Of a stretch of 64,000 bases of DNA, positions 20,909-48,151 are shown piece after piece. Source of the stretch: Qingrenia yutianensis (GTDB lineage Bacteria; Bacillota; Clostridia; UMGS1810); contig NZ_JACRTE010000003.1 of the NCBI RefSeq assembly GCF_014385105.1, positions 112,358-176,357 on the forward strand, given 5' to 3'. Below the pieces are notes generated by a model. The model made no database searches, had not been told where the DNA came from, and saw nothing but the letters and a program-made list of their open reading frames with translations. Each line of letters starts with the position of its first letter. The first letter of the stretch is position 1. The position numbers and the translations under genes are program-made.

Positions 20909-22510
20909 TTATTTTTCCCGTGCATACAGTGCCGCAAAATTAAGAAGCTGCTTTTTTGAGGAAACGCCGAGCTTGCTGTAAATATTGCCGTTATGGTATT
21001 TAAGTGTACTCTCTTTAACTTCTGCAATCTGTAAAATTTCAGGAACGGTTTTTCCCTCCAGATAGAGGTCAAATATTGTTCTCTCCTTGGGAGTAAGGCT
21101 GCGTAAACCCGAACAGAAATGATCATAATCATCCTGTATGATGATATTTTTATGCTCTTTCATCAGACGCTTGTTTTCGGTTCTGATGCGTTCAATCTCG
21201 CTTTGCAGACTCTCGTTTTTTTCGGAATGCTCATCGAAGATTTTTTGATATTCGTTATCCTTTCCGGCAAGAAATGCAAAAAGGTCGTCAATTTCCATAA
21301 TACCGCTTTGACTTTCGTCGGAATATGTCTTTTCGGATTGCTTTATTTTGTCAAGCGATTTTTTTATCGGAAGGATAAATCGATTTGAAAAATACAGGCT
21401 AAGGCTTAAAACAGCAAATCCCAAAATCAGAATTATGAGTATAAGCTGTATGGTGTTTTTCGTTTCCAGCCCGGAATAATCCGCATACGGCATCATAACC
21501 GTAATAGAATAAGGTGTGTTTTCGGAATAAAGAGTTGTGTTTCTCGTCATGCCGATATATGCGCCGTATTCATTTTTTAAAGCGACAAGACCCTTTTTCA
21601 GCGGCTTGATTTTGAGGGAATCCTTAGGTGCAAGGAAATATCCGTTTTTTGCTCCGCAGCTTAATCCCTCTTTGATATTGATTTCTTTATCGCCCGAGCG
21701 GGAGAATATGCAGGTTATGTGCGGAAGCGTGGACGGCTGTGCGTGTGCGGACTTAAAAACGCTTTCGTTTACTTCAAAGCCGCAGATGCCGTAAACGCGG
21801 CCGCCGTCGCCTCTGATAGGAAGCGCTACAAGCATAACACGCTCCGACGTTCCGGGAAGCGTTATAATATTACAAATATGAGTGGCTTTTTCAATCGGCT
21901 CGGCGGTATCCGAAAGAACTTCTTCAAAATTCGGGAATCCCCCGGTGTCAAATTCCAAATGCCATTTACGGTGAGGCATAATGCCTTTGTTTATTGCAGC
22001 CTTCACATTTCCCCTGTAAAGAAGCATTGTTTCCTTGTCCGTTGTTCCGAACAGATCCTGATTAAGGTACACGCCTGCTTTTGAACCGCTTTCGCCGGTT
22101 TGAGATGCGTTAATCAGAATAAAAGCGCCGGAACAGCTTGCCTTTAAAAGCTCGTTCTTCAATAAATCAATATAGCGTTCCTCAAGAGCGTTGATATGCA
22201 AAAAAGAATTCTGAACGACGCCAAAATCTGTATTTTCCGAATTGAGATATTGCTCGGTAAGCTGTGCGGCTTTTTCGGAAAGCTGTGCGCCGCGCAAGGT
22301 AATATCATTGTAGTAAGACGTCATTTCACGGTCGAAAAACTCAATCTGAAGGCTTAATATATCCGATATTTTATCCTCGGTTGTCGAAAAACGTCCGAAC
22401 AGGAAAAGAAAAGCCGCAAATATAAGCAATAAAACGATAGCCAGGATAAACATATATCCAAACAGCTTTTTTTGCATAGATTGTCTTTTGTTTCTTACCG
22501 ATATTTGCAT
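20909..22510 (-). CDS. membrane-embedded LuxR-family one-component transcriptional regulator (TM – ~300-aa extracytoplasmic sensor domain – TM – coiled coil – LuxR HTH)
   Basis: TM1 'FGYMFILAIVLLLIFAAFLFLF', TM2 'IQLILIILILGFAVLSLSLYF', and C-terminal 'LTPKERTIFDLYLEGKTVPEILQIAEVKESTLKYHNGNIYSKLGV' LuxR/FixJ-type HTH. No receiver or kinase domain. Start set at Met 22510, downstream of the binding-protein gene's stop. Confidence 0.7.
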   Translation of the reverse strand: MQISVRNKRQSMQKKLFGYMFILAIVLLLIFAAFLFLFGRFSTTEDKISDILSLQIEFFDREMTSYYNDITLRGAQLSEKAAQLTEQYLNSENTDFGVVQNSFLHINALEERYIDLLKNELLKASCSGAFILINASQTGESGSKAGVYLNQDLFGTTDKETMLLYRGNVKAAINKGIMPHRKWHLEFDTGGFPNFEEVLSDTAEPIEKATHICNIITLPGTSERVMLVALPIRGDGGRVYGICGFEVNESVFKSAHAQPSTLPHITCIFSRSGDKEINIKEGLSCGAKNGYFLAPKDSLKIKPLKKGLVALKNEYGAYIGMTRNTTLYSENTPYSITVMMPYADYSGLETKNTIQLILIILILGFAVLSLSLYFSNRFILPIKKSLDKIKQSEKTYSDESQSGIMEIDDLFAFLAGKDNEYQKIFDEHSEKNESLQSEIERIRTENKRLMKEHKNIIIQDDYDHFCSGLRSLTPKERTIFDLYLEGKTVPEILQIAEVKESTLKYHNGNIYSKLGVSSKKQLLNFAALYAREK

Positions 22511-22523
22511 AACAATCCCCCGT

Positions 22524-23846
22524 CTATTTTTCGCAGAGCTTTTGCCAAAGTCCCTCGGCAAGTGCTTCGGGCGGCGTGTTGCTTAATATAAATTGTTTCT
22601 GTTCGTTTCTTAAATAATCGTAAAATGCGTAAACTCTGCTGTAATATTCGGGACTTTGCTGTTCCGATAAAACCTCCGAGCTTTCCTTAATTTTTTTTAG
22701 GGCTGCATAGAGTTTTTCATAATCGGCTGTCTTGAAACGGCAGTCGTCTATTTTGTCAAACGCACCGTTTGTAACCGGCATATAACCTGTTTGGCTTACG
22801 AACTCAAGATTTCTCTCCGGCTCGGTGAGCCATTTGGCAAAAATCACTGCAGCCTCTGCTTTTTGACTTGATGTTTTATATGCGCAAAGACCGACTCCGG
22901 CTTGCGTGATATACGGCTTTTTTCCGTTTTCAGCGGGCAGAGGCAGTATATCCAGATCCATCGGCTCACTCGTTCCGTCCTCATATGTCACGGTATCATT
23001 ATAGTAAAGAATTGCGGCGGACGAGCCTATGCCGGCTACAACCTCGCCTGTCATCACCTGTGTGTTTGAATAGAGATTTGAAAGCATAATATGCCCTTTT
23101 GCAAGCGAATCCGCAAATTTCATAAAGGTTTGCTTAAAAATCACGTTTGACGGGTCATAGAATCCGTTGTCGGCAAAAATATTTCCTGCGCCGCTTTCCG
23201 CAGCCGCAAGCTCAATGGCTCGCAGCGGATAATCAAGAGCGCAGAACGGTTTTCCGCCCGACCAGTCATAATATTTCGCGGCAGCATCGAAAAACCCGTC
23301 CCAGGTGGACAGCGCTTCATATGTAACGCCCGTATCGGCTGAAAAGCGTTCAAACTGACCGCCGGCGATAAACAAAAGATGGGTGGATTTGGACACCGGG
23401 AACACGGACAGCTTTCCTTCTGCCGTGCCGTCCTCCAAAAACTCCGGAACGTATGCCGAAAGCTCTTTTTCGGAAAAATATTCGTTCCAGTCAAGTAAAC
23501 AATCCGTTCCAAGCTCCAGCGCGTTGCTTTTGTGCGCAAAGAAAAGGTCGGGCATTTCGGCGGAACCGGGAATCTTATTATGTGCGTCAAGCAGTTTTTC
23601 GCCTATTTTGGAGGCATTCGACATTGCCGTAACATTGATAATAATGCCTTTTTCCATGCCAACTGTCTCGTTAAATTCGTCAATAAGCCGATTCATCGGC
23701 GAATACGCTTGTTCTCCGTAAACGTGCCACATTGTAAGCGTAACGGGTTTGTTTTTATCAAGCTTCGATTTTTTGCAGCCGGAAAGGCAGCATATTGATA
23801 TGCTGAAAATGAGAAAAAGCAAAAATAATTTTCTTGCTGAATTCAT
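22524..23846 (-). CDS. extracellular solute-binding lipoprotein (family 1, sugar-type ABC binding protein)
   Basis: Lipobox 'CCLSGC' and a 440-aa periplasmic-binding-protein fold. It sits directly upstream of, and co-transcribed with, the LuxR-type regulator. No permease or ATPase genes are adjacent. Confidence 0.75.
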   Translation of the reverse strand: MNSARKLFLLFLIFSISICCLSGCKKSKLDKNKPVTLTMWHVYGEQAYSPMNRLIDEFNETVGMEKGIIINVTAMSNASKIGEKLLDAHNKIPGSAEMPDLFFAHKSNALELGTDCLLDWNEYFSEKELSAYVPEFLEDGTAEGKLSVFPVSKSTHLLFIAGGQFERFSADTGVTYEALSTWDGFFDAAAKYYDWSGGKPFCALDYPLRAIELAAAESGAGNIFADNGFYDPSNVIFKQTFMKFADSLAKGHIMLSNLYSNTQVMTGEVVAGIGSSAAILYYNDTVTYEDGTSEPMDLDILPLPAENGKKPYITQAGVGLCAYKTSSQKAEAAVIFAKWLTEPERNLEFVSQTGYMPVTNGAFDKIDDCRFKTADYEKLYAALKKIKESSEVLSEQQSPEYYSRVYAFYDYLRNEQKQFILSNTPPEALAEGLWQKLCEK

Positions 23847-24299: not shown

Positions 24300-24683
24300 A
24301 TGATAAATGAGAAGCATAAAACGGCTGCATACAAAATTATTCCGTCACAGGGCGGAAACCGTTACAGCTTTTTCTGCGAATTGTCGGGGATGCTTGTTTG
24401 CACAAGCGGAACATATTATGCGGATAATCCGGAAAAAGAGCTTTTTACCGCTTGGGAATCAGAGGGCAAAAATAATTTTAATGTTTGTCACCGATGCGGA
24501 AGATGGGTTGATTCCGTTGTGTATAATCCGGATGTGCTGATGTGCGTGGACTGTGCTCCTCTCGAGGAGGAGGCGAAATACTGCAAGCACTGCGGAGCAA
24601 GAGCGAAAAACGGCGACATAGTTTGCTCCGTATGCGAAAAAAAGTTGTTATACGGAGGTGCCGGTGAAAATGGCGAAATATAA
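24300..24683 (+). CDS. small cytoplasmic double zinc-ribbon protein
   Basis: GGAGG 8 nt upstream of ATG 24300. C-terminal 'CHRCGRW...CVDC' and 'CKHCGAR...CSVC' CxxC pairs. Confidence 0.55.
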   Translation: MINEKHKTAAYKIIPSQGGNRYSFFCELSGMLVCTSGTYYADNPEKELFTAWESEGKNNFNVCHRCGRWVDSVVYNPDVLMCVDCAPLEEEAKYCKHCGARAKNGDIVCSVCEKKLLYGGAGENGEI

Positions 24684-24954
24684 TAATCCGTCAAGAAAAG
24701 AAGTTTTGGAGCATTTCGGTTTCGGTACGGAAAATATGAAAAGGCTTAAAATCTGTCAGTGCTGCGGCAACGCACAGGCCGCAAAAAACAAGCTTTGCGA
24801 GGTTTGTCATACAAAGTTGCGCGATGAAACGCTTTTTGATATTTACAAAGCAAAGCACCGCTGCTGCGAAAAATGCGGGAACGTGCTTCCGGATGACGCG
24901 GAGTACTGTCCCTTGTGCGGGGCGAAACAAAATAATGAAAGAGAGTCAATATAA
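24670..24954 (+). CDS. small double zinc-ribbon protein (overlaps upstream gene by ~14 nt)
   Basis: 'CQCCGN...CEVC' and 'CEKCGN...CPLCG'. Start at ATG 24670 is preferred over the called GTG 24658, which overlaps the ribosome-binding site. Confidence 0.5.
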   Translation: MAKYNNPSRKEVLEHFGFGTENMKRLKICQCCGNAQAAKNKLCEVCHTKLRDETLFDIYKAKHRCCEKCGNVLPDDAEYCPLCGAKQNNERESI

Positions 24955-25128
24955 AGATGTTAAAATTCCGGAGGATGTAACGCTTGATGCGGGCGGCAAA
25001 ATATTTCTTTGGGAAAATCTTAAAACGCTGAGACCGCTTTGCGATGCGTTTACGATAAACAAATAATTTAATTGTAATATCCATTTTTAAAATGTGGATA
25101 TAGATAAAAATTTTTAAGGAGGTTCATC

Positions 25129-25524
25129 ATGAAAGGAAGAAAGTTTTTGAAGGTCACGGGTATTCTGATGATTATCGGAGGAGCATTTGGTATCATCGGA
25201 GGGATTGTTGCAATGATCGGAGCAGGAGCTTTGGCGGCGGTTCTTGAAACGAGTGCCGGCGGGCTTATGCTTGCAAGTGCGCTGATTCTGGCAAGTGCAG
25301 TATTTCAGCTGGTTGCCGGAATTATGGGTGTAAAAAACTGCGATAAACCCGAAAAGGCTCAAAGCTGCATAGTTATTGGCGTAATTGTGGCAATTTTAAG
25401 CGTAGCGGGAAACGTTATTTCAAACGTGCTTGGCAGTGATTTTAACATCATTAACTACGTTGCCGGTCTGATTATTCCGGTTCTGTACATAATTGGTGCG
25501 GTAAAAAATAAAGAGCCGGCATAA
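25129..25524 (+). CDS. small Gly-rich integral membrane protein (3–4 TM helices)
   Basis: AAGGAGG ribosome-binding site. Hydrophobic GxxxG-rich helices 'ILMIIGGAFGIIGGIVAMIGAGALAAV'. Confidence 0.55.
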   Translation: MKGRKFLKVTGILMIIGGAFGIIGGIVAMIGAGALAAVLETSAGGLMLASALILASAVFQLVAGIMGVKNCDKPEKAQSCIVIGVIVAILSVAGNVISNVLGSDFNIINYVAGLIIPVLYIIGAVKNKEPA

Positions 25525-25592
25525 GTAAAATATCCGAATGCTCCCGCCGTCCGGTTTTTGGCAGCGGGAGCATATGTGCCAAAATTCAAGAG

Positions 25593-26771
25593 GTGATTTT
25601 TATTAAAAAATATATTGCTTTTTTAACGGTTTTATTTCTTTTTATTTTCGGTAATATACTTTGCGTCAATGCCGGCGCAGATATTGCGGTTGGAATAACG
25701 ATAAACGGGGAAGTTATCGAAACGGAGGTTTCACCCTTTGTGGAAAACGGACGTACGCTCGTTCCGGTGAGAGCCGTTTCGGAGCATTTAAAGTACAGCG
25801 TTGAGTGGTTTGCGGAGGAACAAAGAGTCGATATTGATTCGCCCTCCGATAAGCTTACGCTTTACATAGGCAGCGCAGACTATTATAAAAACGGTGAAAA
25901 AAGAACCATGGACGTTCCTGCGGTAATTAAAGACGAAAGAACCTTTGTTCCCCTGCGGCTGGTTGCCGAGGAAATGGGATGTGAGGTTAAATGGGACGAA
26001 GAAAATAATATTGCAAATGTAATAAAATATAACATTGTGGAGGCAAAGACGCCTCATGATATTATACTTAATGCGGCAAGCTATACAAAAATCATTCTTA
26101 AGGAGCAGGAATATGATTTATCGGAGCTTGACGCGATAAATATTGATAACCCCAATGTTTTTGCAGACGATACCTTTGAAGGATACGAATATATAATAAA
26201 AGACGTATCCAATCTTGTTATAGAAGCACCGGAGGGAATAAGCGCTTCTGTTGTAACTCAGGCTCCCTACGCAAACGTACTAAGCTTTAAGGGATGCAGC
26301 GGTATTGTGCTTAAAAATATCACGGCAGGACATAAGGTTGAGAAGGGCTATTGTACCGGCGGCGTAATAATGCTTGACGGTTGCCGGGATATAAATATTG
26401 ATAAATGCGGCCTGTACGGCTGCGGAACGTACGGAATAACTGCGACAGACTCTGCTGAAATAACTGTGGAAAACACGGAAATATATGAGTGCACATATGG
26501 GCTTGTTGAGTTAAGCGACTGTGGCGGAATTAAGTTTAACGGCTGCACATTCAGAGATTCCGGGATGTTTTCAATGTTTGTACTGGACGGCTGCAGCGGT
26601 GTAAGCGTAACAAACTCGGAAATTAAAAATAACAACAGTTCGGAGAATTCGTATTTTATAAGCGCTTACGATTGTTCGGATATTGAATTTTCCGGCTGTG
26701 ACTTTTCAAATAATTCTTATTATAATTTCTGCAGCGGCGATGCTGTAAAATTTACCGGATGCAAATTATGA
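25593..26771 (+). CDS. secreted protein: two copper-amine-oxidase N-terminal-like (stalk) domains + Cys-rich right-handed beta-helix repeats
   Basis: Signal peptide; 'RTLVPVRAVSEHLKYSVEW' and 'RTFVPLRLVAEEMGCEVKW' stalk-domain motifs. The C-terminal 150 aa carry more than 14 Cys in 'GCxG/ CGxYG' ~20-aa repeats. Confidence 0.6.
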   Translation: MIFIKKYIAFLTVLFLFIFGNILCVNAGADIAVGITINGEVIETEVSPFVENGRTLVPVRAVSEHLKYSVEWFAEEQRVDIDSPSDKLTLYIGSADYYKNGEKRTMDVPAVIKDERTFVPLRLVAEEMGCEVKWDEENNIANVIKYNIVEAKTPHDIILNAASYTKIILKEQEYDLSELDAINIDNPNVFADDTFEGYEYIIKDVSNLVIEAPEGISASVVTQAPYANVLSFKGCSGIVLKNITAGHKVEKGYCTGGVIMLDGCRDINIDKCGLYGCGTYGITATDSAEITVENTEIYECTYGLVELSDCGGIKFNGCTFRDSGMFSMFVLDGCSGVSVTNSEIKNNNSSENSYFISAYDCSDIEFSGCDFSNNSYYNFCSGDAVKFTGCKL

Positions 26772-26795
26772 TAAGCATATTAAGGGAGTGAAACG

Positions 26796-27875
26796 ATGGA
26801 AACAGTACAAAGCTATAAGTGTCCTTGCTGCGGTGCTTCGCTGATTTTCCAAAACGAGTCGCTGCACTGCGATTCCTGCGGAAATGATTTTGAGCTTGAC
26901 GCTATGCGGCAAATTGAGGATGTCGGATCGCAAATGCAGGGAGAGTCAAAATATGACTGGGAGCATTACGAACCGAGAAACTATGAAACAGACGGAGAAA
27001 TTGAACTTGCAAGCTATACCTGTCCCTCCTGCGGTGCGGAGATAACCGGTGACGATACAATGGGGTCGACCATCTGCCCTTACTGCGGTGATGCGGCGGT
27101 AATCAAGGGACAGTTTGAGGGAACACTGCGCCCTGATTATATTATTCCGTTTAAAACAGAAAAAAAGGCGGCAATAGAGGCGTTTGAGGCAGATTTCAAA
27201 AATGCGCCGTTTCTGCCGGACGAATTTAAGGTTAAGAAGAAAATTGAAGAAATGACAGGTGTTTACGTGCCATTCTGGATGTTCGATTGCGATTGCAACG
27301 CAGCAATAACTTACGGGGCACAAAGAACCACAAGCTGGAGTGATTCCAATTACAATTATACCAAAACAGATTATTACAGACTTTTCAGAAGCGGCAGTGT
27401 GGGTTTTGCCAACATTCCTGTTGACGGCTCAAAAAAGGCGGATGACGCATATATGGAGGCGGTAGAACCTTTTTGTTATGATGATGCAGTGGAGTTTAAC
27501 GGCGCATATCTTTCGGGGTATATGGCGGATAAATATGATGTTTCGGCAGAGGAAAGCATAGAGCGAGCTAACGAACGTGTAAAAAATTCAACGGTTTCGG
27601 TATTTAAGGAGACGACGAGCGGTTACGCTGCGGTGATTCCCGAAAGTACAAAAATCAGCTTTTCAGGCGGTAAAATAAGGTATTCCCTTCTCCCGGTTTG
27701 GATGCTTAACATCAAATATATGAACAATACCTATAAGTTTGCTGTCAACGGACAGACCGGTAAGGTTGTCGGTGAATATCCTATTGATAACGGAAAAAAA
27801 TGGAGATACTTTGCGAAAATTGCAGGCTTTGCTTATATAGCAGCTGCAGTTATAGCATATTTCTTGCTGCATTAG
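26796..27875 (+). CDS. YdjG-like protein: N-terminal double zinc ribbon, C-terminal TM anchor
   Basis: 'CPCCGAS...CDSCGN' and 'CPSCGAE...CPYCG'. C-terminal TM 'FAKIAGFAYIAAAVIAYFLL'. Directly followed by the TPM gene. Confidence 0.6.
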   Translation: METVQSYKCPCCGASLIFQNESLHCDSCGNDFELDAMRQIEDVGSQMQGESKYDWEHYEPRNYETDGEIELASYTCPSCGAEITGDDTMGSTICPYCGDAAVIKGQFEGTLRPDYIIPFKTEKKAAIEAFEADFKNAPFLPDEFKVKKKIEEMTGVYVPFWMFDCDCNAAITYGAQRTTSWSDSNYNYTKTDYYRLFRSGSVGFANIPVDGSKKADDAYMEAVEPFCYDDAVEFNGAYLSGYMADKYDVSAEESIERANERVKNSTVSVFKETTSGYAAVIPESTKISFSGGKIRYSLLPVWMLNIKYMNNTYKFAVNGQTGKVVGEYPIDNGKKWRYFAKIAGFAYIAAAVIAYFLLH

Positions 27876-27886
27876 GAGGGAGCTAA

Positions 27887-28663
27887 ATGAAAAGATTTGT
27901 TGCAATCATGATTGCCCTTCTCTGCTTTGTATCGACAATTACCGTATATGCGGATTTTATCAATCCAACGATTACGGATTCGGTCGGATACCTGACAGAG
28001 GAACAAAATAAAGAGCTGTCGGCAAGGCTTGATAAAATTCGTGAACAATATAATTTTGACATCGTATTTGTTTCAGAGGATAGATTATCTGCCTATGACG
28101 CACAAGCGGCGGCAGACGACATTTACGATTATAATGGCTACGGTTACGGTGATAATTATGACGGAATACTTTTTTATATAGCAGATTCCGAAAGAGAATA
28201 TCATTTTTCCGTCTGCGGCAGCGGCGAGACAATATTTAACAAAAACGGTCTTGCATACCTTGAAAAAAAGATTGTGCCGTATTTAAAGGAAGATAACTAT
28301 TATGCTGCAGTCAAATCATACGCCGACCGTACGGAAGAGCTTTTGGAGATGGCAGCAGAGGGTAAGCCGTTCAACAAGAGGCAGCACAGCATGAAGTATA
28401 TCCTGTGTGTGGTTGCCGGGGCGCTTCTTCTTCCCCTTATTCTTGCGTATTTTATGATGCACAAAAAGCTCTGCGCAATGAAAACGGCGGTCAAAGAGGA
28501 CTATGCCGGCAATTATATGAAGCCGAACAGTATGAATCTTGACTTTTCAAGGGATATATTCCTTTACAGCACCGTGACAAAAACGGAAAAACCGAAATCG
28601 GATTCCGGCAGCCATACATCGTCTTCCGGAAGAAGTCACGGCGGAAGGGGCGGAAGTTTTTAA
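27887..28663 (+). CDS. TPM-domain (YgcG/YdjH-like) membrane protein with Gly-rich C-terminal tail
   Basis: Signal/TM, then a TPM core 'VGYLTEEQNKELSARLDKIREQYNFDIVFVSEDRL...GILFYIADSEREYHFSVCGSGE', a C-terminal TM and 'SSGRSHGGRGGSF'. Confidence 0.75.
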   Translation: MKRFVAIMIALLCFVSTITVYADFINPTITDSVGYLTEEQNKELSARLDKIREQYNFDIVFVSEDRLSAYDAQAAADDIYDYNGYGYGDNYDGILFYIADSEREYHFSVCGSGETIFNKNGLAYLEKKIVPYLKEDNYYAAVKSYADRTEELLEMAAEGKPFNKRQHSMKYILCVVAGALLLPLILAYFMMHKKLCAMKTAVKEDYAGNYMKPNSMNLDFSRDIFLYSTVTKTEKPKSDSGSHTSSSGRSHGGRGGSF

Positions 28664-28689
28664 AAACAAATTTTAAGGAGGAAAGAATT

Positions 28690-29568
28690 ATGGGAATAGG
28701 TGATTTTTTTAAGAACATTTTCGGTAAAAAAATTTGTGCATTATGCGGCAAGGAATGCGGCATGATGCATCGCACAAAAATCAGGAACAAGGAATTTTTA
28801 TGTGACGATTGCGGAAATCTATGCTCAAAGTACATTAGGCTGAGCGAGCTGACATTGGACGAAGTCAAGGGGCATATAGAATATATGAAAAGGCAGAACA
28901 GACTTTTTGAGGAGGTCTATTCCAAAGAAGGAAAGAAAGACACATACCCTTCGTCGCTCAAGGAAATGGGCATTGAATTTTGCGATGATTTGGGAATGTT
29001 TCGGATTTTGCACAGAAGCAACACGGGCAGAGGCAAAATGAACGAGCTTTTCCGCTACGATCAGGTGGCAAGCTATGAGGAATACATAGATGAAACACCG
29101 GCAACCGAGCCGGGAAAAAATCCTGAATTTAAGGAATGTGGATTAAAAATCAAGCTTTTGGGCGGAAATATGAGCAAGGTTAATACAGACAACAAAAAAG
29201 GTCTTCGTCCTCATCCGTATATTAAGCATGAAATTAAAGTTTGTTTCAGCAAAAAAGACCGTTCGGATTTGCAGTATGCACACAATGCAAAATGCAAGTT
29301 TGATTATATTTTCGGCGTTCACGATGATGAAAGAGGCTTGTTCGGCTTTGGCAGAAGCAAGGCAGAAAAAAGAGAGGATGCGGCAGCGATTGGAATGGCG
29401 GCGGCATTCGGAACGGCTTTTAAGGCTGCAACAAAAGGCGAGGAAGCCGTAACGGAGGCGGACAAAGAAAAACTGAAGGAAGGCATAAATGCTATGAACG
29501 ACGCAGCGACCGGCGGCATGGCGGTTTACACAAGACGTGCGGACGATGCGGAAGCCAAAATAAAGTAA
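28690..29568 (+). CDS. zinc-ribbon domain protein (N-terminal CxxC...CxxC), cytoplasmic
   Basis: 'CALCGKECG...CDDCGN' near the N-terminus. The remainder has no recognisable motif. AAGGAGG ribosome-binding site. Confidence 0.5.
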   Translation: MGIGDFFKNIFGKKICALCGKECGMMHRTKIRNKEFLCDDCGNLCSKYIRLSELTLDEVKGHIEYMKRQNRLFEEVYSKEGKKDTYPSSLKEMGIEFCDDLGMFRILHRSNTGRGKMNELFRYDQVASYEEYIDETPATEPGKNPEFKECGLKIKLLGGNMSKVNTDNKKGLRPHPYIKHEIKVCFSKKDRSDLQYAHNAKCKFDYIFGVHDDERGLFGFGRSKAEKREDAAAIGMAAAFGTAFKAATKGEEAVTEADKEKLKEGINAMNDAATGGMAVYTRRADDAEAKIK

Positions 29569-29583
29569 CGGGAGGTGCAAAAC

Positions 29584-30768
29584 GTGAAAAAACTATCGTT
29601 ATTGCTTGCAGCACTGCTGATCTTAAGCAGCACTGTTGTCAGTGCGGAATGGGAAACATTCAAATCGGCAGACGGTATGTATGAATACACAAAGGATGGA
29701 GTAATTACCGCTTATTACGGTGATGAATTTGCCTTTTTCCCGGCAGAAATAGACGGAACAATAATCAATGAAATCGGTGTTATGGCTTGTTTTGACTTAG
29801 GACTTGAAGCCATATCCGTTGCCGAAGGAATTGAATTGATAAACACAAATGCATTTGAAGGCTGCAATACCGAAAGTGCATATATTCCGTCAAGTGTGAA
29901 AAATATCGGTGAGCGCGCTTTTGCCAACTGCGCAAATCTTAATGAGGTTACATTGAATTCAGAGGAAATAACGTTTGATTTTGATGTGTTTGCCGGAACC
30001 GGATTTATACAGTTTTATATCCCGTGCACGGCAGATGAGCATGTGATGTACGAAAAAATATCCGACGCAAAGGGTGACGGGAATTTTAGTTTTTCACTTA
30101 TGCATACTGCGCTTGTTGAGAGTATGACGGAAAAGGATATTTTCGGTGAAAACATGATATACTGCGAGGACTGCGGCTTTAAAGGAAGCAAATATCTGGA
30201 GGATACCTCTCTGCCGTTTGCGGACATATCGCCGGACGCATGGTACTATTCTTATGTGCAGACGGCGTACAGCTTCGGCATCATAAACGGGAAAAACAAA
30301 AGGGAATTTGACCCGAATGCAGGGCTTACCTGCGCGGAGGCAGCCAAAATTGCCGCGGTAATTCACAATAAAAGCCAATACGAAAGAGAGGAAGTTGAAT
30401 TCCAAATGACCGGTGAAAACTGGTATGATGTTTATGTGGATTATTGCTATGACAATGCAATACTTGAAGATTATATTATCTTCGATTGGGAGGAAAACGC
30501 AACGCGTGCACAGATGGCATATCTGTTTTCGCGGTGCGACACCAATCCGTATTATATAAACGATGTTCCGATAACCGATATTCCGGACGTTTATGACACA
30601 ACGCCCTTCGCATATGAAATTTTAGACCTTTATAATAAAGGAATTGCGGTGGGAAGCGATGAATACATGGCGTTCTATCCGGATTCACATGTAAAACGCA
30701 GTGAAGCGGCGGCTCTTATTTCGAGAATTCTTTGCTACGATATGCGGATTGAATTGCCGAAAGGGTGA
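29584..30768 (+). CDS. secreted BspA-type leucine-rich-repeat protein with C-terminal SLH domains
   Basis: Signal peptide (GTG start at 29584 after GGGAGG); LRR_5-like 'INTNAFEGCNTESAYIPSSVKNIGERAFANCANLNEVTL'; SLH-like 'FADISPDAWYYSYVQTAYSFGIINGKNKREFDP'. Confidence 0.7.
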   Translation: MKKLSLLLAALLILSSTVVSAEWETFKSADGMYEYTKDGVITAYYGDEFAFFPAEIDGTIINEIGVMACFDLGLEAISVAEGIELINTNAFEGCNTESAYIPSSVKNIGERAFANCANLNEVTLNSEEITFDFDVFAGTGFIQFYIPCTADEHVMYEKISDAKGDGNFSFSLMHTALVESMTEKDIFGENMIYCEDCGFKGSKYLEDTSLPFADISPDAWYYSYVQTAYSFGIINGKNKREFDPNAGLTCAEAAKIAAVIHNKSQYEREEVEFQMTGENWYDVYVDYCYDNAILEDYIIFDWEENATRAQMAYLFSRCDTNPYYINDVPITDIPDVYDTTPFAYEILDLYNKGIAVGSDEYMAFYPDSHVKRSEAAALISRILCYDMRIELPKG

Positions 30769-30782
30769 TTAAGGTGAGGCTG

Positions 30783-31313
30783 ATGAAAGCAATTGCGATA
30801 TTTGCGGTTATTGCCGGTCTTTTCGGATGCAGGGCTCCCGGAGAAAAACCTTTTATATTGGACGGACCGGGCATGGTGTATGTTGACAGTGAGCATCGTA
30901 CAGAATACGCAAATACTCTTCCGTTCGATGAAATCGAGGACTATCCCTATTGGGCGGTCGCATATCTTGGAGAGGGAGAAACCGGCAAAAATACGGCAAA
31001 TGAATATATAGAAAAACTTTTTTCAAAGCTTTCAGAGGAAAAATGCCGGGCAATAAGTCATTATGATTACGGCGGAGAAAAATGGTATCTTGTTATTCCG
31101 CGGTACGGAGATGAGAACGAGCTGATTCAAAACGGCGACAAGAAAAATTTGCAAAAAGCAGATGACGGCACACCGTATATAATAAACTGCGGCGGCGATG
31201 TTGAAATTTATATCGTCATACGCGGCGGACACAAAATCACGCTTGATACGGATGAAAACGACAGGCTGATATGTACCCCTGATATATGGGATATAACAGA
31301 CTATAAAGAATAA
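30783..31313 (+). CDS. hypothetical lipoprotein
   Basis: 'AVIAGLFGCRAP' lipobox-like signal. Start chosen at ATG 30783; the called start 30765 overlaps the upstream stop. Confidence 0.45.
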   Translation: MKAIAIFAVIAGLFGCRAPGEKPFILDGPGMVYVDSEHRTEYANTLPFDEIEDYPYWAVAYLGEGETGKNTANEYIEKLFSKLSEEKCRAISHYDYGGEKWYLVIPRYGDENELIQNGDKKNLQKADDGTPYIINCGGDVEIYIVIRGGHKITLDTDENDRLICTPDIWDITDYKE

Positions 31314-31337
31314 AAATTTTGAGAGGAGAATATAATT

Positions 31338-32663
31338 ATGGGACTTTTAAAGGCGGGCGCAGGCGCTCTTGGCGGTGTTTTGGCTGACCAGTGGAGAGAA
31401 TTTTTCTACTGCGAAAGTTTAGATGCCGACACACTTGTGGCAAAAGGTGAAAAACGAGTGGGAAAAAGAAACTCCAACAAAAAGGGAGACGACAACATTA
31501 TTTCGAACGGTTCTGTCATTTCGGTAAACGAAGGGCAGAGCATGATTATTGTGGAATCCGGAAAGATTGTTGAATTCTGCGCAGAAGCCGGAGAATTTGT
31601 CTACGATAATTCCACAGAGCCGAGTATTTTCTGCGGCAGCTTAGGCGAAAGCATTAAGCAAAGCTTTCAGCAGGTCGGAAAGCGTTTTACTTTCGGCGGC
31701 GAACCGGGCAAGGATCAGAGGGTTTATTATTTCAACACAAAGGAAATTACCGGCAATAAATTCGGCACCTCCTCTCCCGTTCCGTTCAGGGTAACGATAG
31801 ATGAGTCCATGAACTATAAGCTGTCGGTGGATTTAAGGTGTAACGGTGTGTATTCCTATAAAATAGCCGATCCTGTTATGTTTTATACAAACGTAAGCGG
31901 TAATGTGGAATATGTATACAGCCGTTCGGAAATTGACGAAATGTTAAAGAGCGAGCTTCTGGACGCTCTGAGACCGGCATTTGCGCAAATTTCGGCAATG
32001 AAAATAATGTATTCGGAAATACCGGCACATACAAAAGAGGTTACGAAGGCGCTTGCCGAGGAACTTAAAGCCGAGTGGAAGGAAAAACGCGGAATCGAGC
32101 TTTTCGCCGTAAGCATTAACGGTGTATCCATCCCCGAGGACCAGAGAAAGAAGATTACCGAGTGGGAGGAAAACGTTATGACAACCAATCCGAATATTGC
32201 GGCGGCGCGCATTGTCGGCGGGCAGACAGACGCTATGAGAACGGCAGCGGCAAACGAAGGCGGAATGGGTGCAATGGGCGGCTTTTTCGGAATGAATATG
32301 GCGCAGAACGCAGGCGGTATGAATGCGGGCAATCTTTTTGCGATGGGTCAGCAGCAACAGCAGTCTCAGCAGCAGGCACAGCAGCCTCAAGCGGCAGGCT
32401 GGAGCTGTGAATGCGGTCAGACGGGCAATACCGGGAAATTCTGTATGAATTGCGGAAAACCGCAGGCATCGCCCGACGGCTGGACGTGTTCGTGCGGAAC
32501 GGTCAACAAGGGTAGGTTCTGCCAAAACTGCGGGAATCCGAAACCTGCGGGCGCACCGACCTATAAATGCGATAAATGCGGCTGGGAGCCTGAAGATCCC
32601 AAAAATCCGCCGAAATTCTGTCCGGAATGCGGTGACATATTTGATGATAATGATAAACAATAA
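31338..32663 (+). CDS. SPFH-domain protein of the YdjI/COG4260 type with Q/G/M-rich linker and three C-terminal zinc ribbons
   Basis: N-terminus 'GVLADQWREFF', SPFH/band-7-like core, 'MGGFFGMNMAQNAGGMNAGNLFAMGQQQQQSQQQAQQ' linker, then 'CECGQ..CMNCG', 'CSCGT..CQNCG', 'CDKCG..CPECG'. Confidence 0.7.
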   Translation: MGLLKAGAGALGGVLADQWREFFYCESLDADTLVAKGEKRVGKRNSNKKGDDNIISNGSVISVNEGQSMIIVESGKIVEFCAEAGEFVYDNSTEPSIFCGSLGESIKQSFQQVGKRFTFGGEPGKDQRVYYFNTKEITGNKFGTSSPVPFRVTIDESMNYKLSVDLRCNGVYSYKIADPVMFYTNVSGNVEYVYSRSEIDEMLKSELLDALRPAFAQISAMKIMYSEIPAHTKEVTKALAEELKAEWKEKRGIELFAVSINGVSIPEDQRKKITEWEENVMTTNPNIAAARIVGGQTDAMRTAAANEGGMGAMGGFFGMNMAQNAGGMNAGNLFAMGQQQQQSQQQAQQPQAAGWSCECGQTGNTGKFCMNCGKPQASPDGWTCSCGTVNKGRFCQNCGNPKPAGAPTYKCDKCGWEPEDPKNPPKFCPECGDIFDDNDKQ

Positions 32664-32686
32664 AATAATGGGAGGAACTTTATATT

Positions 32687-33859
32687 ATGAAAAAAATATT
32701 AGCGTTAATTTTAGCAGTAGGAATGGTATTTTCGCTCGCTGCGTGCGGCGGTGAAAAAACCGGAAAAGGCACCGAAACAAAGCAGGAAACCAAAAAGATT
32801 GACTACGCAAATATGACAGAGGACGATCTGATAAAAGAGTTTATTAAAGATGAGCAGAATATAACCTTGGATGAATTTATAGACCTTGTTTCTACATATT
32901 CATATGCAACAATCAACAATAAGCTTGAGCTTGATGAAAATATAACAGACAAAGCAATAAAAAAGCTTAAAGAAAATAAAGCAAAGCTGCCGGCGGCAAA
33001 GGAATTTGTTGAGCCTCTTTTAAAAAGTGACGCACCGCAGGTAAGAGGCTATGCTTTTTCAAACATCGCCACATTTTTCGGGGCAAGTGATTCGCATAAA
33101 GCGTCGGCAAAGGAGATTCTGAAAACCGAAAAAGAGCCTTATGTTATTAAATGTGCGGTAAAAGCTCTTGGAAATGAAGGCGGCAAGGATGCAGAAATCG
33201 GCAAATTCCTGCTTGATGCGGCAAAGAATGAAAACGCAGTTGTAAGAAGGCAGGCGGCGGTTGCTCTCGGAAGCACATGGAACAAGACTCTTAACGGAGC
33301 GGTTGATGCAGAGATTGAGCTGATGAAGGATCCGGATAAAGAGGTTCGGAAAGCAGCGTATGAGTATGCCGGTCTCCTCGGTGATGACAGGGTGGTTGCG
33401 CCTATCTCGGAAATGCTGAAAAACGAGGCTGACGCAGACCTTCATTCAAGCGGTGTAAGAGGTCTTGTTTGGCTGTGGTATGATTATCCGTCGCACGAAA
33501 ACACAAGCGAGGCGGCATACAGAGCCACGATAGACTACTTTAAAACCACACCGGGCAGCGACAAAGTTCCCGCATGGGCAGCTGTGACAAGCTTTACAAA
33601 CAAATCCGAGAAGAACTATGACGCATGGAAGGAAAAAGCAACATATTTCAATACAGATGAGCTTTATGAAGTTATGCTCGGACTTGTAAAAAACGAAAAT
33701 TTAGGACGTATGACGCGCGGATATGCCTGCAAACCCGTTGCGGTGCATTGCACAAAAGAGCAGTTTGAAGCGTTTGGCGAGGTTATAAACGCTCTTACCG
33801 ATAAGAATGCGAAATTTATACAGGACGAGTATCAAAATCAGGCAAAAAAGCTTGAATAG
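32687..33859 (+). CDS. HEAT-repeat lipoprotein
   Basis: Lipobox 'LAACGG'. Repeated 'VRxxAaxALG' HEAT-like helices (VRGYAFSNI, VRRQAAVALGS, VRKAAYEYAG). Confidence 0.55.
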   Translation: MKKILALILAVGMVFSLAACGGEKTGKGTETKQETKKIDYANMTEDDLIKEFIKDEQNITLDEFIDLVSTYSYATINNKLELDENITDKAIKKLKENKAKLPAAKEFVEPLLKSDAPQVRGYAFSNIATFFGASDSHKASAKEILKTEKEPYVIKCAVKALGNEGGKDAEIGKFLLDAAKNENAVVRRQAAVALGSTWNKTLNGAVDAEIELMKDPDKEVRKAAYEYAGLLGDDRVVAPISEMLKNEADADLHSSGVRGLVWLWYDYPSHENTSEAAYRATIDYFKTTPGSDKVPAWAAVTSFTNKSEKNYDAWKEKATYFNTDELYEVMLGLVKNENLGRMTRGYACKPVAVHCTKEQFEAFGEVINALTDKNAKFIQDEYQNQAKKLE

Positions 33860-33880
33860 CTGCAGAACGGAGGAATGACT

Positions 33881-34723
33881 ATGAAAAAAATAATCGGCGT
33901 TATACTGATTATAGGAGGCATTTTCTTTGCTTTGCTTGCTGTAAAAGCTCTTGTGTCAGCACCGCAGTCCTACGAGAAAATCAGAGCTGCGGCAACGATT
34001 AAGGACGGCAAGCTTACTCCCGAAAACGAAGGGAAGCTTGTGGTTGTCTCGGGAACGCTTAAACCTGCCGAACAGCTTCAGGATCCCATAACTGGTGTTA
34101 AGCTTCCTGGAGTAACGGCGAAAAGAACCGTTTGGACTTATGAACGGGATACCAACAGCGATGATGAACAGGTGTGGGACTGGAAGCCTGAGAATACCGA
34201 CTACAGCGAAAAGGCAAATTTCGGAATCAATGCCGAAATACTTACAACAACTATGCTTGCCGCGCCTACATTACTCGGTGAGTTTAAGGTGGAGAGCAAC
34301 CTGCTCAATCCGATTATAAGAAACACGGAATTTAAGCAATATGACGAGAAGAGCCTCAATGCGGGCTGGAAGGTGCTTTCGGGCGGAAGAGAAAGCAGCT
34401 ACTGCGTTTCAAAAGAAAATTGGCTGCCGAAAAAATCAACAGGTACATACTCAACGACGGGATATGGAGCTCAAAAAATATCCTACGGTATTGTTTCGCC
34501 CGACGATCCGCTCGAATATACGGTTATCGGCGTACAAAAAGGCGATACCCTGATAAAGAGCGAAGATGTAGATTCTGTTACAACCGTTAAGGGAATTATG
34601 ACGGCGGAAGAATTTGCCGAGGAGAACAAAAAAGGTGTGCGCGGCGGCTCGATTTTCGGTATCGTGGCAGGAATATTGCTTGCAATAATCGGTGTTGGAA
34701 TGATGGCATTCCGGAGGCAGTGA
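33881..34723 (+). CDS. hypothetical membrane protein with N- and C-terminal TM helices flanking a ~220-aa extracytoplasmic domain
   Basis: TM 'IIGVILIIGGIFFALLAV' and TM 'IFGIVAGILLAIIGVGMMAF'. ATG 33881 has GGAGG 7 nt upstream. Confidence 0.5.
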   Translation: MKKIIGVILIIGGIFFALLAVKALVSAPQSYEKIRAAATIKDGKLTPENEGKLVVVSGTLKPAEQLQDPITGVKLPGVTAKRTVWTYERDTNSDDEQVWDWKPENTDYSEKANFGINAEILTTTMLAAPTLLGEFKVESNLLNPIIRNTEFKQYDEKSLNAGWKVLSGGRESSYCVSKENWLPKKSTGTYSTTGYGAQKISYGIVSPDDPLEYTVIGVQKGDTLIKSEDVDSVTTVKGIMTAEEFAEENKKGVRGGSIFGIVAGILLAIIGVGMMAFRRQ

Positions 34724-34725
34724 AA

Positions 34726-35301
34726 ATGAAGACGAATACAAAATTATTCTCCGGAGGCGGAACCTATATTTCAAAAGTGGCAATTGCAAGGCTTACATTA
34801 AAAAAACACATACAAATGATTATAGGCGGATTCTTCACAGCGGTTTTTCTGTTCGGAATTATTTCGGGGGTTACGGGGTATAACGAAGAACTTCGTGATA
34901 ACTTGATTACCAATATAGTCATGCTTGTTCCGTCCGCACTCCTTTTGTTAAACGGCATTAAAAACGGCACAATGGCGGCGCGTGCATATCGCTACAACTC
35001 AATCTTTATGTGCGATATTGACGGCACGGTGACAATTGACGAGCTTGCAAAGCAATCCGGAAAACCGCCGTTCAGGGTGCTTTCCGAGCTTGATAAGCTT
35101 TTTGATAAAGGAGTGTTCTGTGACTGCACTCTGCAAAAGCAGGGATTGCCCTGCGTGATTCTTTCGGGCAGAGAAAACAGTAAAACAAGCTTTGTTAACG
35201 TTGTATGCGAAAAATGCAACGGAACAACAAGGATCCGCGCCGGAAGCTCCGGTAAATGTGAGTATTGCGGAAATGCAATCTCAAGCCGCAATATCGGATA
35301 A
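34726..35301 (+). CDS. membrane protein with C-terminal zinc ribbon
   Basis: Two TM helices, then 'CEKCNG...CEYCGN'. The called start 34720 overlaps the upstream stop by 4 nt. Confidence 0.5.
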   Translation: MKTNTKLFSGGGTYISKVAIARLTLKKHIQMIIGGFFTAVFLFGIISGVTGYNEELRDNLITNIVMLVPSALLLLNGIKNGTMAARAYRYNSIFMCDIDGTVTIDELAKQSGKPPFRVLSELDKLFDKGVFCDCTLQKQGLPCVILSGRENSKTSFVNVVCEKCNGTTRIRAGSSGKCEYCGNAISSRNIG

Positions 35302-35469
35302 ATGCAAAATCCAAAAGAAAGGAGATGCTAAGTTATATCGAAAGATATTAACGCAGACACAGAAATCTGAAGTTCGGATTATACTGTTATGTAATCCGAT
35401 ACATTCCGGCAAATTTTGCAGAGGAATGTAAAATATCACATCAAAAGAATGAAAGGAGGAAACAGCAAA

Positions 35470-38400
35470 ATGAAACGATTGCGAAAAAAACTGGTGACAG
35501 CACGAATTTTGGCATTTGTTACGGCGGTTGCAATGCTTTCGGGTATTGGAATAGCTGCTTCTGAGGGAAATAGCGCTGATTCCATTGATGCGTCTGAGAA
35601 CACTGTTATAAGCGAAACGGCACAAGCGCCGGAATCGCCGACTGCGGCGGAACCGCCTGAACTGCCGACTGCGGCGGAACCGCCTGAACAAACGGCAGAA
35701 GCGGAAACAACAGAAGCGCCTGAGGTGCCGACGGAGTCTGATGTTCCGGAATTTCCGAAAGTGTCTGACATGCCCGAAGCAATGGAGATGCCGGAATTTC
35801 CGGAAGAAGATGAAACGCCGGATGTGTCGGGAAATATTGTTGAATTTGGCTCACTCAACCAAGAAGAAGCGCAGACGCCGATGATGGCGTCGATGGGGGC
35901 AAATTCGGGTGACATGGCTCTTGCAGCGGACGATTATTCTCAGTGGATTAACATCGGAAACCACAAAGCACCCGACGGCACCAATTACAAAGCAGACTCA
36001 AAATTTTGGTATGAGGGCATGGTGCTGTGTTTGGAAAGTGAAAGCGCCGATGCAAAAATCCGGTTGCAGAGCGACATTTCTGTGGAAGAAAATTTCTTTG
36101 AAAACGAAAAAAATAATTGGATAGTCGATGTTAATGTCAAGCGTAACAAGGTTATTGACTTAAACGGCAAAACTATTTATATTAAGCCCTATCAATATGA
36201 TAAGGATAACACTTTTTTCTACGGCAAGAATTTTTCCACCGGTATTGCAAAGCATTATACCATGTTCAATATCGGAAACGGTTCCAAGCTCACCATTGTG
36301 GACAGCAAGGGCGGCGGCAAAATCAGGTGCGACAGTTGGCTGCTTTCCGAAAAAGATATGGACGATGCGGAAACAAGCTGTGTGGATATGTTCAATGTTT
36401 CGTCCGGCGGCGAGCTGTTTATCAACGCCTCCGGTGCAGAGTTTGTTTGCGGCCGCTCGAAAAAGCAGTATCTTTACGCTGCTTCCTGCAACGGTCCCGA
36501 TAATGAATATTGCTATGACGGTTATGCCCGGGGTCAGGTTAACGGCTCTGTGGTCGTAGCAGGCGAAAACAGTAAGGTAACCGTGGTTGGCGGCTCTCTT
36601 TTGGCGAGGGGCTACAGCCTGACACCGAGTACCGGCTGGAAGCCGAGCGGCGGCGCAGAAAGTGTGAAAAAATGTGCCGTTTTCCAGGTGGCAAAGGGTG
36701 CGGAAATCAACATTACGGACGGATATTTTAAAGGCTGCGGCGGCGCTGATGTGTTCCAATATTGGTATAGTGACAAGGACAAAATCAGCGTGAATATCAA
36801 AGCGGGCACATTTGACACCCACAAGGTTGATAAAGTGGTTATCCAAGGTCATCTCTCATCCACCACTGATATACCCAACGCATTCAAGGGGTTATCAAGA
36901 GATAACTATATGCCCGGCAGATATGGTGATGTGAACATCCTGAAGGAATGGGTGAATATGGATGAGGCCGACCTTATCTATGGCGGCGAGGAGCTCACCG
37001 AGGAGGACGGAGACGCAACCGGCAGCAAAAAAACCGTTATAAAACCCAAAACCCAGAGCAAATATTTCAACAGTGATTCGCGGGTTGAAATCGAAAACCA
37101 CACCTCCGACGGTTCTAAGGAGTATAACCCCAACGAAAATATACCGTATTATGTCAGTGCCAAGTATACTCCATATTACTCTTTGAAAGAGGAGGAATGG
37201 CTGGCTTATGACTATCAGAACAGAACCGATCGCACTATCAAGTGGTATTACACTCTTTATAAGAGCCTGGGCGACTCTCCGCTTTCTGCAGAGCTGGAAT
37301 CCACTGCTCCAATCTGTAATCTGAATGATTTGCGAACTAATAAAGGCGACAAAATCACCTATCAGAACGGGCAGATGTATCAGCTCAAAATGCGGGTGGA
37401 GGAAAAATGGGTCGGACACAACACCTACACCAGGTCCTTCGCCGGTACGTATATGTTTTATGTTTCCGACGCACCGGTAGGCGAGGTCACGAAATTTATG
37501 AATTTTGAGGTGAAAACCACAGTCACGGGAACGGGAGAACCGCAGAACTTTGAGTCTTTTCCCGACGCCGCAACAATAAGCAAGCTTCAAGAAATGGGCA
37601 TCAAGGATGACACAGAAAGCAGTTATGATTATCGGTATTATTACCTTGATGAATTCGGTAAAACCGTGTACACCAAGTGGATTGACTACGGCAGCGGAAA
37701 ACCGCCGGAAGCCCGTTGGGCATTTGCGCCGCTTAAGCCCGGTCCCATAGATTTGCGCCTGGGTCTTTTGATTCCCGGCAACGGCGGAGAAGGCAGCTAC
37801 ACGAAGATATATAAAACCGTATTCGCTATGCCTTCTATCAGTGTTTGGCGCGAAGGTTCGGGAGATACAGAATTTGTGACTCCCGACCGCAACGACGTTG
37901 TTTATGCAATAACGGGCATGAACGTCACCTTAAATCCCGGGTTAGAGTTTTTAAATGAGCTTGACTTAAAAGACCCGCAAACAGGGAAAAAGCTAACCGT
38001 TGCCGATGTGGAATGGGAGTTTCGTGAATTGAGCGGGACGGGATATGTGCCTCTTGACGTCGACGTGGATAATAACGGCTGCTGCTCCGTTGATCGCAGC
38101 GGCACCTATCGTGCAAAATTCACCTACGATGGCAGAACATGGTATAGTCCAAACCCGATTTTGCTCTCGGGCAAGAACTATGATAACAACAGAATGCCCT
38201 ATATCACCGGCAAAAACAGTCACACATCCTGGTCAGACCCGCATGTGCTGCAAATTAACCTGAATAAGGATGCCAACTGGTATACCGTAACGGAATATTG
38301 GCTGAAAGCGAAAAGTCATCCATATGGCGCCAGCATCGGCAGCAGCCAAAAAAAGTGTGACAGCAACGGCAGTTTGGATATCAAAAAGTTCTTCAGCGGA

Positions 38401-41130: not shown

Positions 41131-41144
41131 AAAGGAGGATGAAT

Positions 41145-47241: not shown

Positions 47242-47375
47242 ATAAAGAACCTCCGATTTCGGTAAAATTTCACTAAATTATATTTTACCAAATTTTCAAA
47301 AAAATTTCAAGCGTTATTAAACAAAACAAAACCGAGATGCGCGCGCAATCTCGGTTTTATGCGGTAATTTCAAAA

Positions 47376-48068
<693 letters not shown>

Positions 48069-48151
48069 CTACATATTACTACAAAAGTCTACATGCTTTT
48101 CAAAAAATAGTTATTTTGCACAATAATTGAATGTATATTTGTAAAATTTAT

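Follow-up and report, generated by a model that had tools for sequence, protein, structure and literature searches.

A zinc-ribbon-rich gene cluster

Here, we describe a gene cluster rich in zinc ribbons from Qingrenia yutianensis, a member of the Clostridia, carried on a 64,000-nucleotide (nt) stretch of DNA (contig NZ_JACRTE010000003.1, positions 112,358 to 176,357) that we call the window and whose numbering is used throughout. Thirteen tightly packed open reading frames (ORFs), g1 to g13, lie on the + strand between 24300 and 35301, and their translations contain paired Cys knuckles in six of the 13. Three of the genes, g5, g6 and g10, match the YdjG/YdjH/YdjI-type trio of Firmicutes, which combines a soluble SPFH protein with two membrane proteins, and further ribbon genes accompany them. 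The trio and the remaining ribbon genes are as follows (aa, amino acids; TM, transmembrane):

24300..24683, + strand: g1, first gene of the putative operon, a 127-aa cytoplasmic protein with an N-terminal alpha/beta domain on ribbon 1 and a DZR-type ribbon 2
24670..24954, + strand: g2, 94 aa, a protein with a double zinc ribbon (DZR); its gene overlaps that of g1 by 14 nt
26796..27875, + strand: g5, YdjG-like, with two N-terminal zinc ribbons, a domain of ~230 aa and a C-terminal TM anchor (Pfam, motifs, hydropathy)
27887..28663, + strand: g6, a YdjH-like TPM-domain membrane protein (TPM_phosphatase, E = 2e-24)
28690..29568, + strand: g7, cytoplasmic, with a helix at the N-terminus, then a zinc ribbon of the DUF4428 type (6 Cys), a PH-like domain and a tail of three helices (Pfam, AlphaFold2 (AF2) model)
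31338..32663, + strand: g10, a soluble, YdjI-like SPFH protein in which a linker rich in Gly, Met and Gln leads to three ribbons at the C-terminus (Band_7_1, E = 5e-18)
34726..35301, + strand: g13, a two-TM protein carrying a cytoplasmic domain and ending in a zinc ribbon (translation, hydropathy)

The knuckles read CHRC/CVDC and CKHC/CSVC in g1, CQCC/CEVC and CEKC/CPLC in g2, CPCC/CDSC and CPSC/CPYC in g5, CALC/CDDC together with C23 and C45 in g7, and CEKC/CEYC in g13, while the three ribbons of g10 are CEC..CMNC, CSC..CQNC and CDKC..CPEC. A first-pass annotation made from the sequence had reported CxxC pairs in these six of 13 consecutive proteins and an overlap of about 14 nt between g1 and g2; the translations give exactly those motifs, the overlap is 14 nt, and the enrichment exceeds chance. 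Outside the cluster, the pattern CxxC-x(6-30)-CxxC occurs in ~1 of 41 window ORFs, as counted in a crude ORF census of the whole window (Fisher p = 4e-4), and against a background of 3.2%, the rate measured among distal ORFs of related loci, the binomial p is 1.5e-6. Moreover, 28 of 438 ORFs lying no more than three genes from the module show the pattern, versus 19 of 595 (p = 0.016, trio homologues excluded), and Zn_Ribbon_1 and Zn_ribbon_3 are the top Pfam families among 150 module neighbours.

The Cys residues are invariant among homologues of the five ribbon families that can be aligned (g1, g2, g5, g7 and g10). Hydropathy analysis finds neither a signal peptide nor a TM segment in g1, g2, g7 and g10, predicts a tail anchor in g5 and two TM segments with both ends inside in g13, and so places every ribbon in the cytoplasm, which removes extracellular disulfides as an explanation of the paired cysteines.

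The first-pass annotation had spoken of one family of ribbon proteins, and this does not hold. In a pairwise ribbon comparison, ribbons 1 and 2 of g10 (z = 7.4) and ribbons 1 and 2 of g5 (z = 5.4) stand out as internal repeats, and across 55 comparisons the scores between different proteins are z <= 4.4 and reflect residues common to knuckles in general. Pfam places the ribbons in different types (DZR/Zn_Ribbon_1, TFIIB-like and DUF4428), and since these are several unrelated families the ribbons are not recent paralogues. Common paralogy of all ribbons was therefore rejected, clear paralogy being found inside g10 and inside g5. As paralogy is confined to single proteins and the ribbon families differ, the cluster is, on sequence comparison, a case of several ribbon families converging on one system and not a paralogous expansion.

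The g5/g6/g10 trio and its YdjG/YdjH/YdjI likeness

All eight ribbon cysteines of g5 are invariant among homologues down to 23% identity (alignment A5). The two hydrophobic segments of its partner g6, a signal/TM segment and a later TM segment, are predicted to flank an external TPM domain, and the protein ends in a Gly-rich tail. The SPFH protein g10, devoid of TM segments by hydropathy, belongs to a family of more than 8000 homologues in which all ribbon cysteines are invariant (alignment A1). The number of its C-terminal ribbons (32400-32560) varies among close relatives: P0002 and P0028 carry four in place of three, the extra ribbon being a duplicated WxCxCG..N.GKFCxxCGxPKP unit.

The association of these genes extends well beyond Q. 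yutianensis. Among 80 genome loci of the SPFH gene, drawn from Oscillospiraceae, Lachnospiraceae, Acutalibacteraceae, Lysinibacillus and others, a g5 homologue adjoins the SPFH gene in 52-58, and a TPM gene follows the g5 homologue beside the SPFH gene in 33-38. Some Lachnospiraceae loci (L017, L022, L034, L045, L056, L059, L066, L068, L077) have no TPM homologue by tblastn; there, the YdjG-like gene is followed, at gene positions of about +1 to +3 relative to SPFH, by one for a 250-aa protein that combines a TM segment and a zinc ribbon with a Tim44/NTF2-like domain and takes the place of TPM. Additionally, clustering revealed a DUF6935 protein of ~180-200 aa a few genes downstream of the module in 8 loci, with examples downstream of the TPM gene in L021, L028, L080, L094 and L095; it has no counterpart in the window. 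A sequence search of the PDB with g10 and g5 found no solved relatives, g5 giving only generic ribbon matches, and an hhalign comparison of g5 with the Tim44/NTF2-ribbon family (A5 versus A6) aligned the ribbons and not the middle domain of g5.

The closest described system is that of Bacillus subtilis, in which YdjG combines two zinc ribbons with an NTF2-like (YpeB-related) domain and a TM segment, the membrane protein YdjH bears a TPM domain, and the SPFH protein consists of a band-7 domain and a C-terminal ribbon (Ravi et al. 2024, PMC11237479). The formation of YdjI membrane foci requires YdjG and YdjH, PspA foci in turn require YdjI, the Ydj proteins interact in two-hybrid assays, and the pspA-ydjGHI operon is part of a stress regulon (Scholz et al. 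2021, PMC8581546). The window genes share the gene adjacency of this system and its architecture: g5 has the two N-terminal ribbons, globular domain and C-terminal TM segment of YdjG, g6 is a TPM-domain membrane protein like YdjH, and g10, like YdjI, is soluble and joins a Band-7/SPFH domain through a low-complexity linker to a zinc-ribbon C-terminus. Furthermore, the N-terminus of YdjG, MIISYKCPNC as derived from primers, resembles that of g5, METVQSYKCPCC, and the primer-derived C-terminus of YdjH, SRGSF, resembles GGRGGSF in g6.

There are also clear differences. A single zinc-finger motif has been reported for YdjI, against three ribbons in g10, and the window adds the ribbon proteins g1, g2, g7 and g13 as well as several interleaved extracytoplasmic proteins. 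The B. subtilis pspA-ydjGHI operon has a sigma-W promoter, whereas a LuxR-type regulator lies upstream in the window. The view that no single annotated family explains the ribbon set thus needs dividing: the described YdjG/YdjH/YdjI system accounts for part of it, and g1, g2, g7 and g13 are left as extras.

Two other types of SPFH system offer partial parallels. Proteins combining Band_7_1 (PF13421) with SHOCT belong to the same SPFH subfamily and likewise carry a short C-terminal module after the core; elsewhere, Band_7_1 proteins most often end in SHOCT, proposed to serve oligomerisation or anchoring (Eberhardt et al. 2013, PMC3581485). In g10, zinc ribbons occupy the place of SHOCT and may be its functional equivalent. 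The SPFH-NfeD operons of the flotillin/stomatin type also encode an SPFH scaffold with membrane partners; in contrast to their scaffold, g10 has neither a TM segment nor a hairpin of its own, and Pfam finds no NfeD domain in any of the 13 cluster proteins. A scan against NCBIfam gave nothing useful.

The small ribbon proteins g1 and g2

The first two genes had been described as encoding only ribbons plus short linkers, which understates both. The first ~60 residues of g1 form a conserved alpha/beta domain packed on ribbon 1, and g2 carries an HFGFGxExMK motif ahead of its ribbons, conserved together with all eight of its cysteines. In the AF2 model of g1, the mean predicted local distance difference test (pLDDT) value is 81 and residues 11-80 exceed 90; the model has no convincing fold match in the PDB. 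Homologues of g1 form 75 clusters down to 44% identity, and nine of its cysteines, the eight ribbon residues and C26, are invariant in an alignment reaching 42% identity (A2). Profile searches of the two proteins against DZR and related ribbon families gave a split result. The scores of g2 lie above the cut-offs of both DZR (PF12773; 41.0 bits, cut-off 27.3) and Zn_Ribbon_1 (PF13240; 30.9 bits, cut-off 25), whereas g1, at 21.5 bits for DZR, falls below the cut-off of 27.3 and is therefore not a DZR member on the gathering criterion; no other Pfam model reaches its gathering score in g1 either.

Both small genes are real: they are conserved in relatives, fused in some, and always stand at the head of the operon beside a divergent LuxR-type regulator. 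Three homologues (P0130, P0147 and P0189), metagenomic and ~215 aa long, are g1-g2 fusions, one of them just 43% identical to g1. Beside a divergent LuxR-type regulator, a g1 homologue (44-55% identical) is followed by a g2 homologue (39-49% identical) in L087, L089, L091 and L093. YdjG-like and TPM genes come next in L089, L091 and L093; in L087 a shorter g5-like gene follows and no TPM match is found. The order of the window is kept in L093 at 39-59% identity (g1, g2, YdjG, TPM, SLH, g7, g9, SPFH), and partial versions of it occur in L087, L089 and L091, so that g1, g2 and g7 are syntenic with the trio in loci diverged to 40-55% identity.

Searches of the 80 SPFH loci with g1 and g2 by tblastn and phmmer gave no direct matches. 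Seven other loci encode a Cys-rich protein of 110-120 aa, the A3 family, shortly before the SPFH gene, with no gene in between in five of them; in six of the seven, its gene adjoins one for a HisKA_7TM-GerE regulator, and the genes run regulator, small protein, SPFH, DUF4428, YdjG, TPM. Among 6774 ORFs, the best match of the A3 profile outside the family is g1 (E = 7e-4). Hhalign of A2 against A3 gives 96.1% probability and E = 3.7e-9, a value that we discount as sole proof because the ribbon-only match of A5 and A6 gave the same probability and E-value; on Cys-rich mini-domains, hhalign values are not trustworthy without independent evidence. Such evidence comes from a search of 1.84 billion representatives with the g1-alignment profile, which returned ~100 small proteins covering the N-terminal domain, many of which the A3 profile matches too (E = 1e-7 to 4e-10). 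Since this transitive link through intermediate sequences is stronger than the hhalign result, g1 is, judged by sequence profiles, a member of a family of small zinc proteins that lacks a Pfam model and is tied to SPFH operons in loci with enough context.

g7 and DUF4428

The third cytoplasmic accessory, g7, reaches 32.2 bits for DUF4428 (PF14471) against a cut-off of 27.8, and thus shares the ribbon of DUF4428 proteins at gathering score. It belongs to a family of 511 members, 290 aa in length, and six Cys and one His are invariant among 22 aligned sequences (A4). Its AF2 model (pLDDT 83, predicted template-modelling score 0.80) comprises an N-terminal helix, the ribbon, a helix-capped seven-stranded sandwich with a PH-like fold, and three long helices. 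All three g7 homologues that we looked up (52-56% identical) are located with Band_7_1, a YdjG-like protein and TPM, and DUF4428 proteins occur in ~14 of the 80 loci, always close to the module.

In the literature searched, we found neither a described function of DUF4428 nor a fixed combination of DUF4428 with a PH-like domain and its linkage to SPFH/YdjG-like/TPM operons. In homologues of the SNIPE nuclease, DUF4428 stands where TM or PH membrane-targeting regions are otherwise found, and because of this replacement there is circumstantial support, by analogy, for a membrane-proximal role of the domain. Strongly conserved N-termini of the MG(L/I) type are shared by g7 (28690-28730, MGxGDFFKNIFGKK) and g10 (31338-31400, MGLLKAGAGALGGVLADQW), and the g7 segment is modelled as a helix; we presume a resemblance to the membrane-binding N-terminal helices of Vipp1/PspA-type proteins.

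Probable operon layout and remaining genes

Intergenic gaps within the 13-gene cluster are at most 174 nt, and a promoter and terminator scan yielded no usable signal, terminator-like sites in the cluster being no commoner than in shuffled sequence. Because the gaps are this short, the genes share one strand and no terminator signal rises above background, the 13 genes likely form a single operon. Its other members, and the two genes divergent from g1, are the following:

20909..22561, - strand: LuxR-type membrane-bound regulator, divergent from g1 (GerE helix-turn-helix (HTH) domain, E = 6e-11)
22524..23846, - strand: SBP_bac_8 lipoprotein-type solute-binding protein, paired with the LuxR-type regulator and divergent from g1
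25129..25524, + strand: g3, a small membrane protein with four TM segments (hydropathy)
25593..26771, + strand: g4, a secreted protein with Cu_amine_oxidN1 and a right-handed beta-helix (Pfam)
29575..30768, + strand: g8, a secreted cell-wall protein with LRR_5 and SLH (Pfam)
30765..31313, + strand: g9, small, either secreted or a lipoprotein; its gene immediately precedes the SPFH gene g10
32687..33859, + strand: g11, a HEAT-repeat lipoprotein (Pfam; lipobox LAAC)
33875..34723, + strand: g12, a TMEM43-like protein with one TM segment at each end (Pfam, hydropathy)

A GerE regulator, often HisKA_7TM-GerE, lies divergent from or adjacent to the g1-family gene in L087, L089, L091 and L093. Almost all related loci that we examined have such a regulator beside the g1-family gene, which suggests a LuxR/GerE-type regulator dedicated to the operon. 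Its pairing with SBP_bac_8 recurs in L089, and in L096 and L097 a member of the g1 superfamily has an SBP_bac_8 gene upstream of it.

Several minor members also recur. Homologues of g3 adjoin the YdjG-like gene in L014, L044 and L089, a g4 homologue follows g1 and g2 in L087, and g9 homologues lie immediately 5' of the SPFH gene in ~9 loci. SLH or LRR proteins are scattered among the module genes in L014, L058, L091, L093 and L095, and g12 is kept in L014. No Pfam model reaches its gathering score in g13.

Directly downstream, at 35416-44453 on the + strand, two very large cell-surface proteins are encoded that may extend the operon: the first has 1904 aa and a C-terminal type I dockerin, and the other has 1104 aa with YDG, MBG, Flg_new and Cu_amine_oxidN1 domains. 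Further along the + strand, at 47337-48110, a 257-aa ORF with 16 Cys and no Pfam match at E <= 0.001 appears unrelated to the cluster.

A proposed PspA-independent membrane-scaffold module

Taken together, these features lead us to favour, with some reservation, the view that the operon encodes an expanded YdjG/YdjH/YdjI-type membrane-scaffold module that works independently of PspA and in which ribbons dock soluble subunits under the membrane. The soluble SPFH oligomer formed by g10 would be held under the cytoplasmic membrane by the tail-anchored double-ribbon protein g5 and the TPM protein g6. In this lineage, the trio would have gained conserved partners, namely g7, the g1/g2 pair and the two-TM ribbon protein g13, with g7 contributing an amphipathic N-terminal helix, its DUF4428 ribbon and a PH-like domain. 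The ribbons would act as zinc-stabilised docking or oligomerisation knobs that link soluble parts to anchors, to one another or to the inner leaflet, so that the soluble subunits (the SPFH oligomer, g7 and g1/g2) are tethered to the anchors g5, g6, g13 and g3. The extracytoplasmic products (TPM, SLH/LRR, Cu_amine_oxidN1, lipoproteins and the TMEM43-like protein) would complete an envelope-spanning assembly, probably serving envelope maintenance or stress.

Such a module would explain the excess of zinc ribbons, since Cys4 ribbons are found on almost all of its cytoplasmic subunits and accessories. A docking role is proposed because YdjI needs YdjG and YdjH, the ribbons are cytoplasmic, g7 has a PH-like domain and ribbons interchange with SHOCT. 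The earlier proposal of adaptors docking to one membrane complex with the TPM and SPFH proteins fits the architecture of the trio and the synteny of g1, g2 and g7; its premise of a single paralogous family does not hold. Our literature searches turned up no description of the PspA-less variant in which a LuxR-type regulator and the conserved accessories g1, g2 and g7 are linked to the trio.

Several observations weigh against this interpretation. PspA, part of the B. subtilis counterpart, did not appear: no Pfam match was found in 26 window proteins in and around the cluster, PspA is not among the families matched by at least two of the 150 neighbours in the 80 related loci, and a query approximating E. 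coli PspA found nothing, though a pspA gene may lie elsewhere in the genome. Whereas pspA and ydjGHI form one operon in B. subtilis, no pspA is linked to the trio in the window, and because none is linked here or in the related loci, function is not simply transferable from the B. subtilis Psp system. The link between g5/g6/g10 and YdjG/YdjH/YdjI is drawn from architecture, adjacency and primer-derived termini, and operon status from gene spacing. Moreover, the relatives in which g13 was found are all close ones (L001-L005, and L014, 88% identical), and three g1-superfamily intermediates lie on contigs too short to reveal an SPFH gene. The motifs, the conserved cysteines, the topology, the domain folds and the synteny are direct results of the analysis; zinc binding, metal-dependent regulation, the physical contacts and the physiological role are what we infer from them.

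Alternative explanations

A bolder version, which we hold only tentatively, sees in the locus a self-contained PspA-independent envelope system that is widespread among gut and rumen Clostridia and made up of the regulator, the g1-family protein and a four-part scaffold of SPFH-ribbon protein, DUF4428-PH protein, double-ribbon tail anchor and TPM. The ribbons would then form a zinc-dependent network of heteromeric contacts, a set of Cys4 sites that is possibly redox- or zinc-responsive and assembles the SPFH oligomer beneath the membrane.

Two other proposals seem unlikely to us, and about equally so. According to one, the Cys4 ribbons are sensors, from which oxidants, electrophiles or zinc limitation release zinc and thereby alter assembly of the SPFH complex, in the manner of Hsp33 or ZAS anti-sigma factors. 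The presence of ~12 strictly conserved Cys4 sites in one envelope-linked operon, whose B. subtilis counterpart belongs to a stress regulon, would suit such a role. However, the sequences hold nothing that separates sensory from structural ribbons, Pfam identifies no thioredoxin, peroxidase or zinc-uptake genes in the operon, and the change between three and four ribbons in g10 among close relatives is better suited to modular docking.

The other proposal takes g1 and g2 out of the scaffold and makes them partners of the adjacent LuxR-type regulator, or nucleic-acid binders, that control expression of the operon. In the window, in L087, L089, L091 and L093 and in six of the seven A3 loci, a GerE or 7TM-GerE regulator does adjoin the g1-family gene; zinc ribbons often bind nucleic acids, and a DNA-binding role for the YdjG ribbon was suggested by Popp et al. 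Yet, by gene spacing, g1 and g2 lie in the transcription unit of the structural genes and not with the regulator, Pfam detects no HTH or other DNA-binding domain in either, and the g1 model matches no nucleic-acid-binding fold.

We give very little credence to the idea of an anti-phage defence or other mobile accessory island that uses ribbon proteins, an idea invited by the membrane-associated SPFH and PH-like proteins and by the occurrence of DUF4428 in SNIPE defence nuclease homologues. None of ten proteins matches the defence models of PADLOC-DB v2 at E <= 0.01, Pfam finds no nuclease, ATPase or toxin domains, composition does not change sharply across the cluster, and synteny is maintained across Clostridia families. 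Finally, a chance side-by-side placement of unrelated ribbon proteins, to which their different Pfam families and weak mutual similarity might point, is the least probable of all and effectively refuted by the conserved synteny, with the gene fusions and the Fisher and binomial statistics given above also standing against it.

Significance

Little is understood of how bacterial SPFH scaffolds come to the membrane when they have no anchor themselves. The preferred reading, a PspA-independent scaffold module with ribbon-mediated docking, bears on this question and on the role of the conserved zinc ribbons of YdjG and YdjI. The ribbon-bearing trio occurs here without linked PspA and alongside further conserved ribbon proteins, g1/g2 and the DUF4428-PH protein. 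Two uncharacterised families, DUF4428 and the Pfam-less g1 family, gain a genomic context from the locus and its relatives, which also supply a short list of possible subunits and Cys sites from an abundant group of gut Clostridia. If the more tentative view of a self-contained system were true, the N-terminal domain of g1 and the DUF4428-PH protein would be new dedicated subunits of bacterial SPFH complexes.

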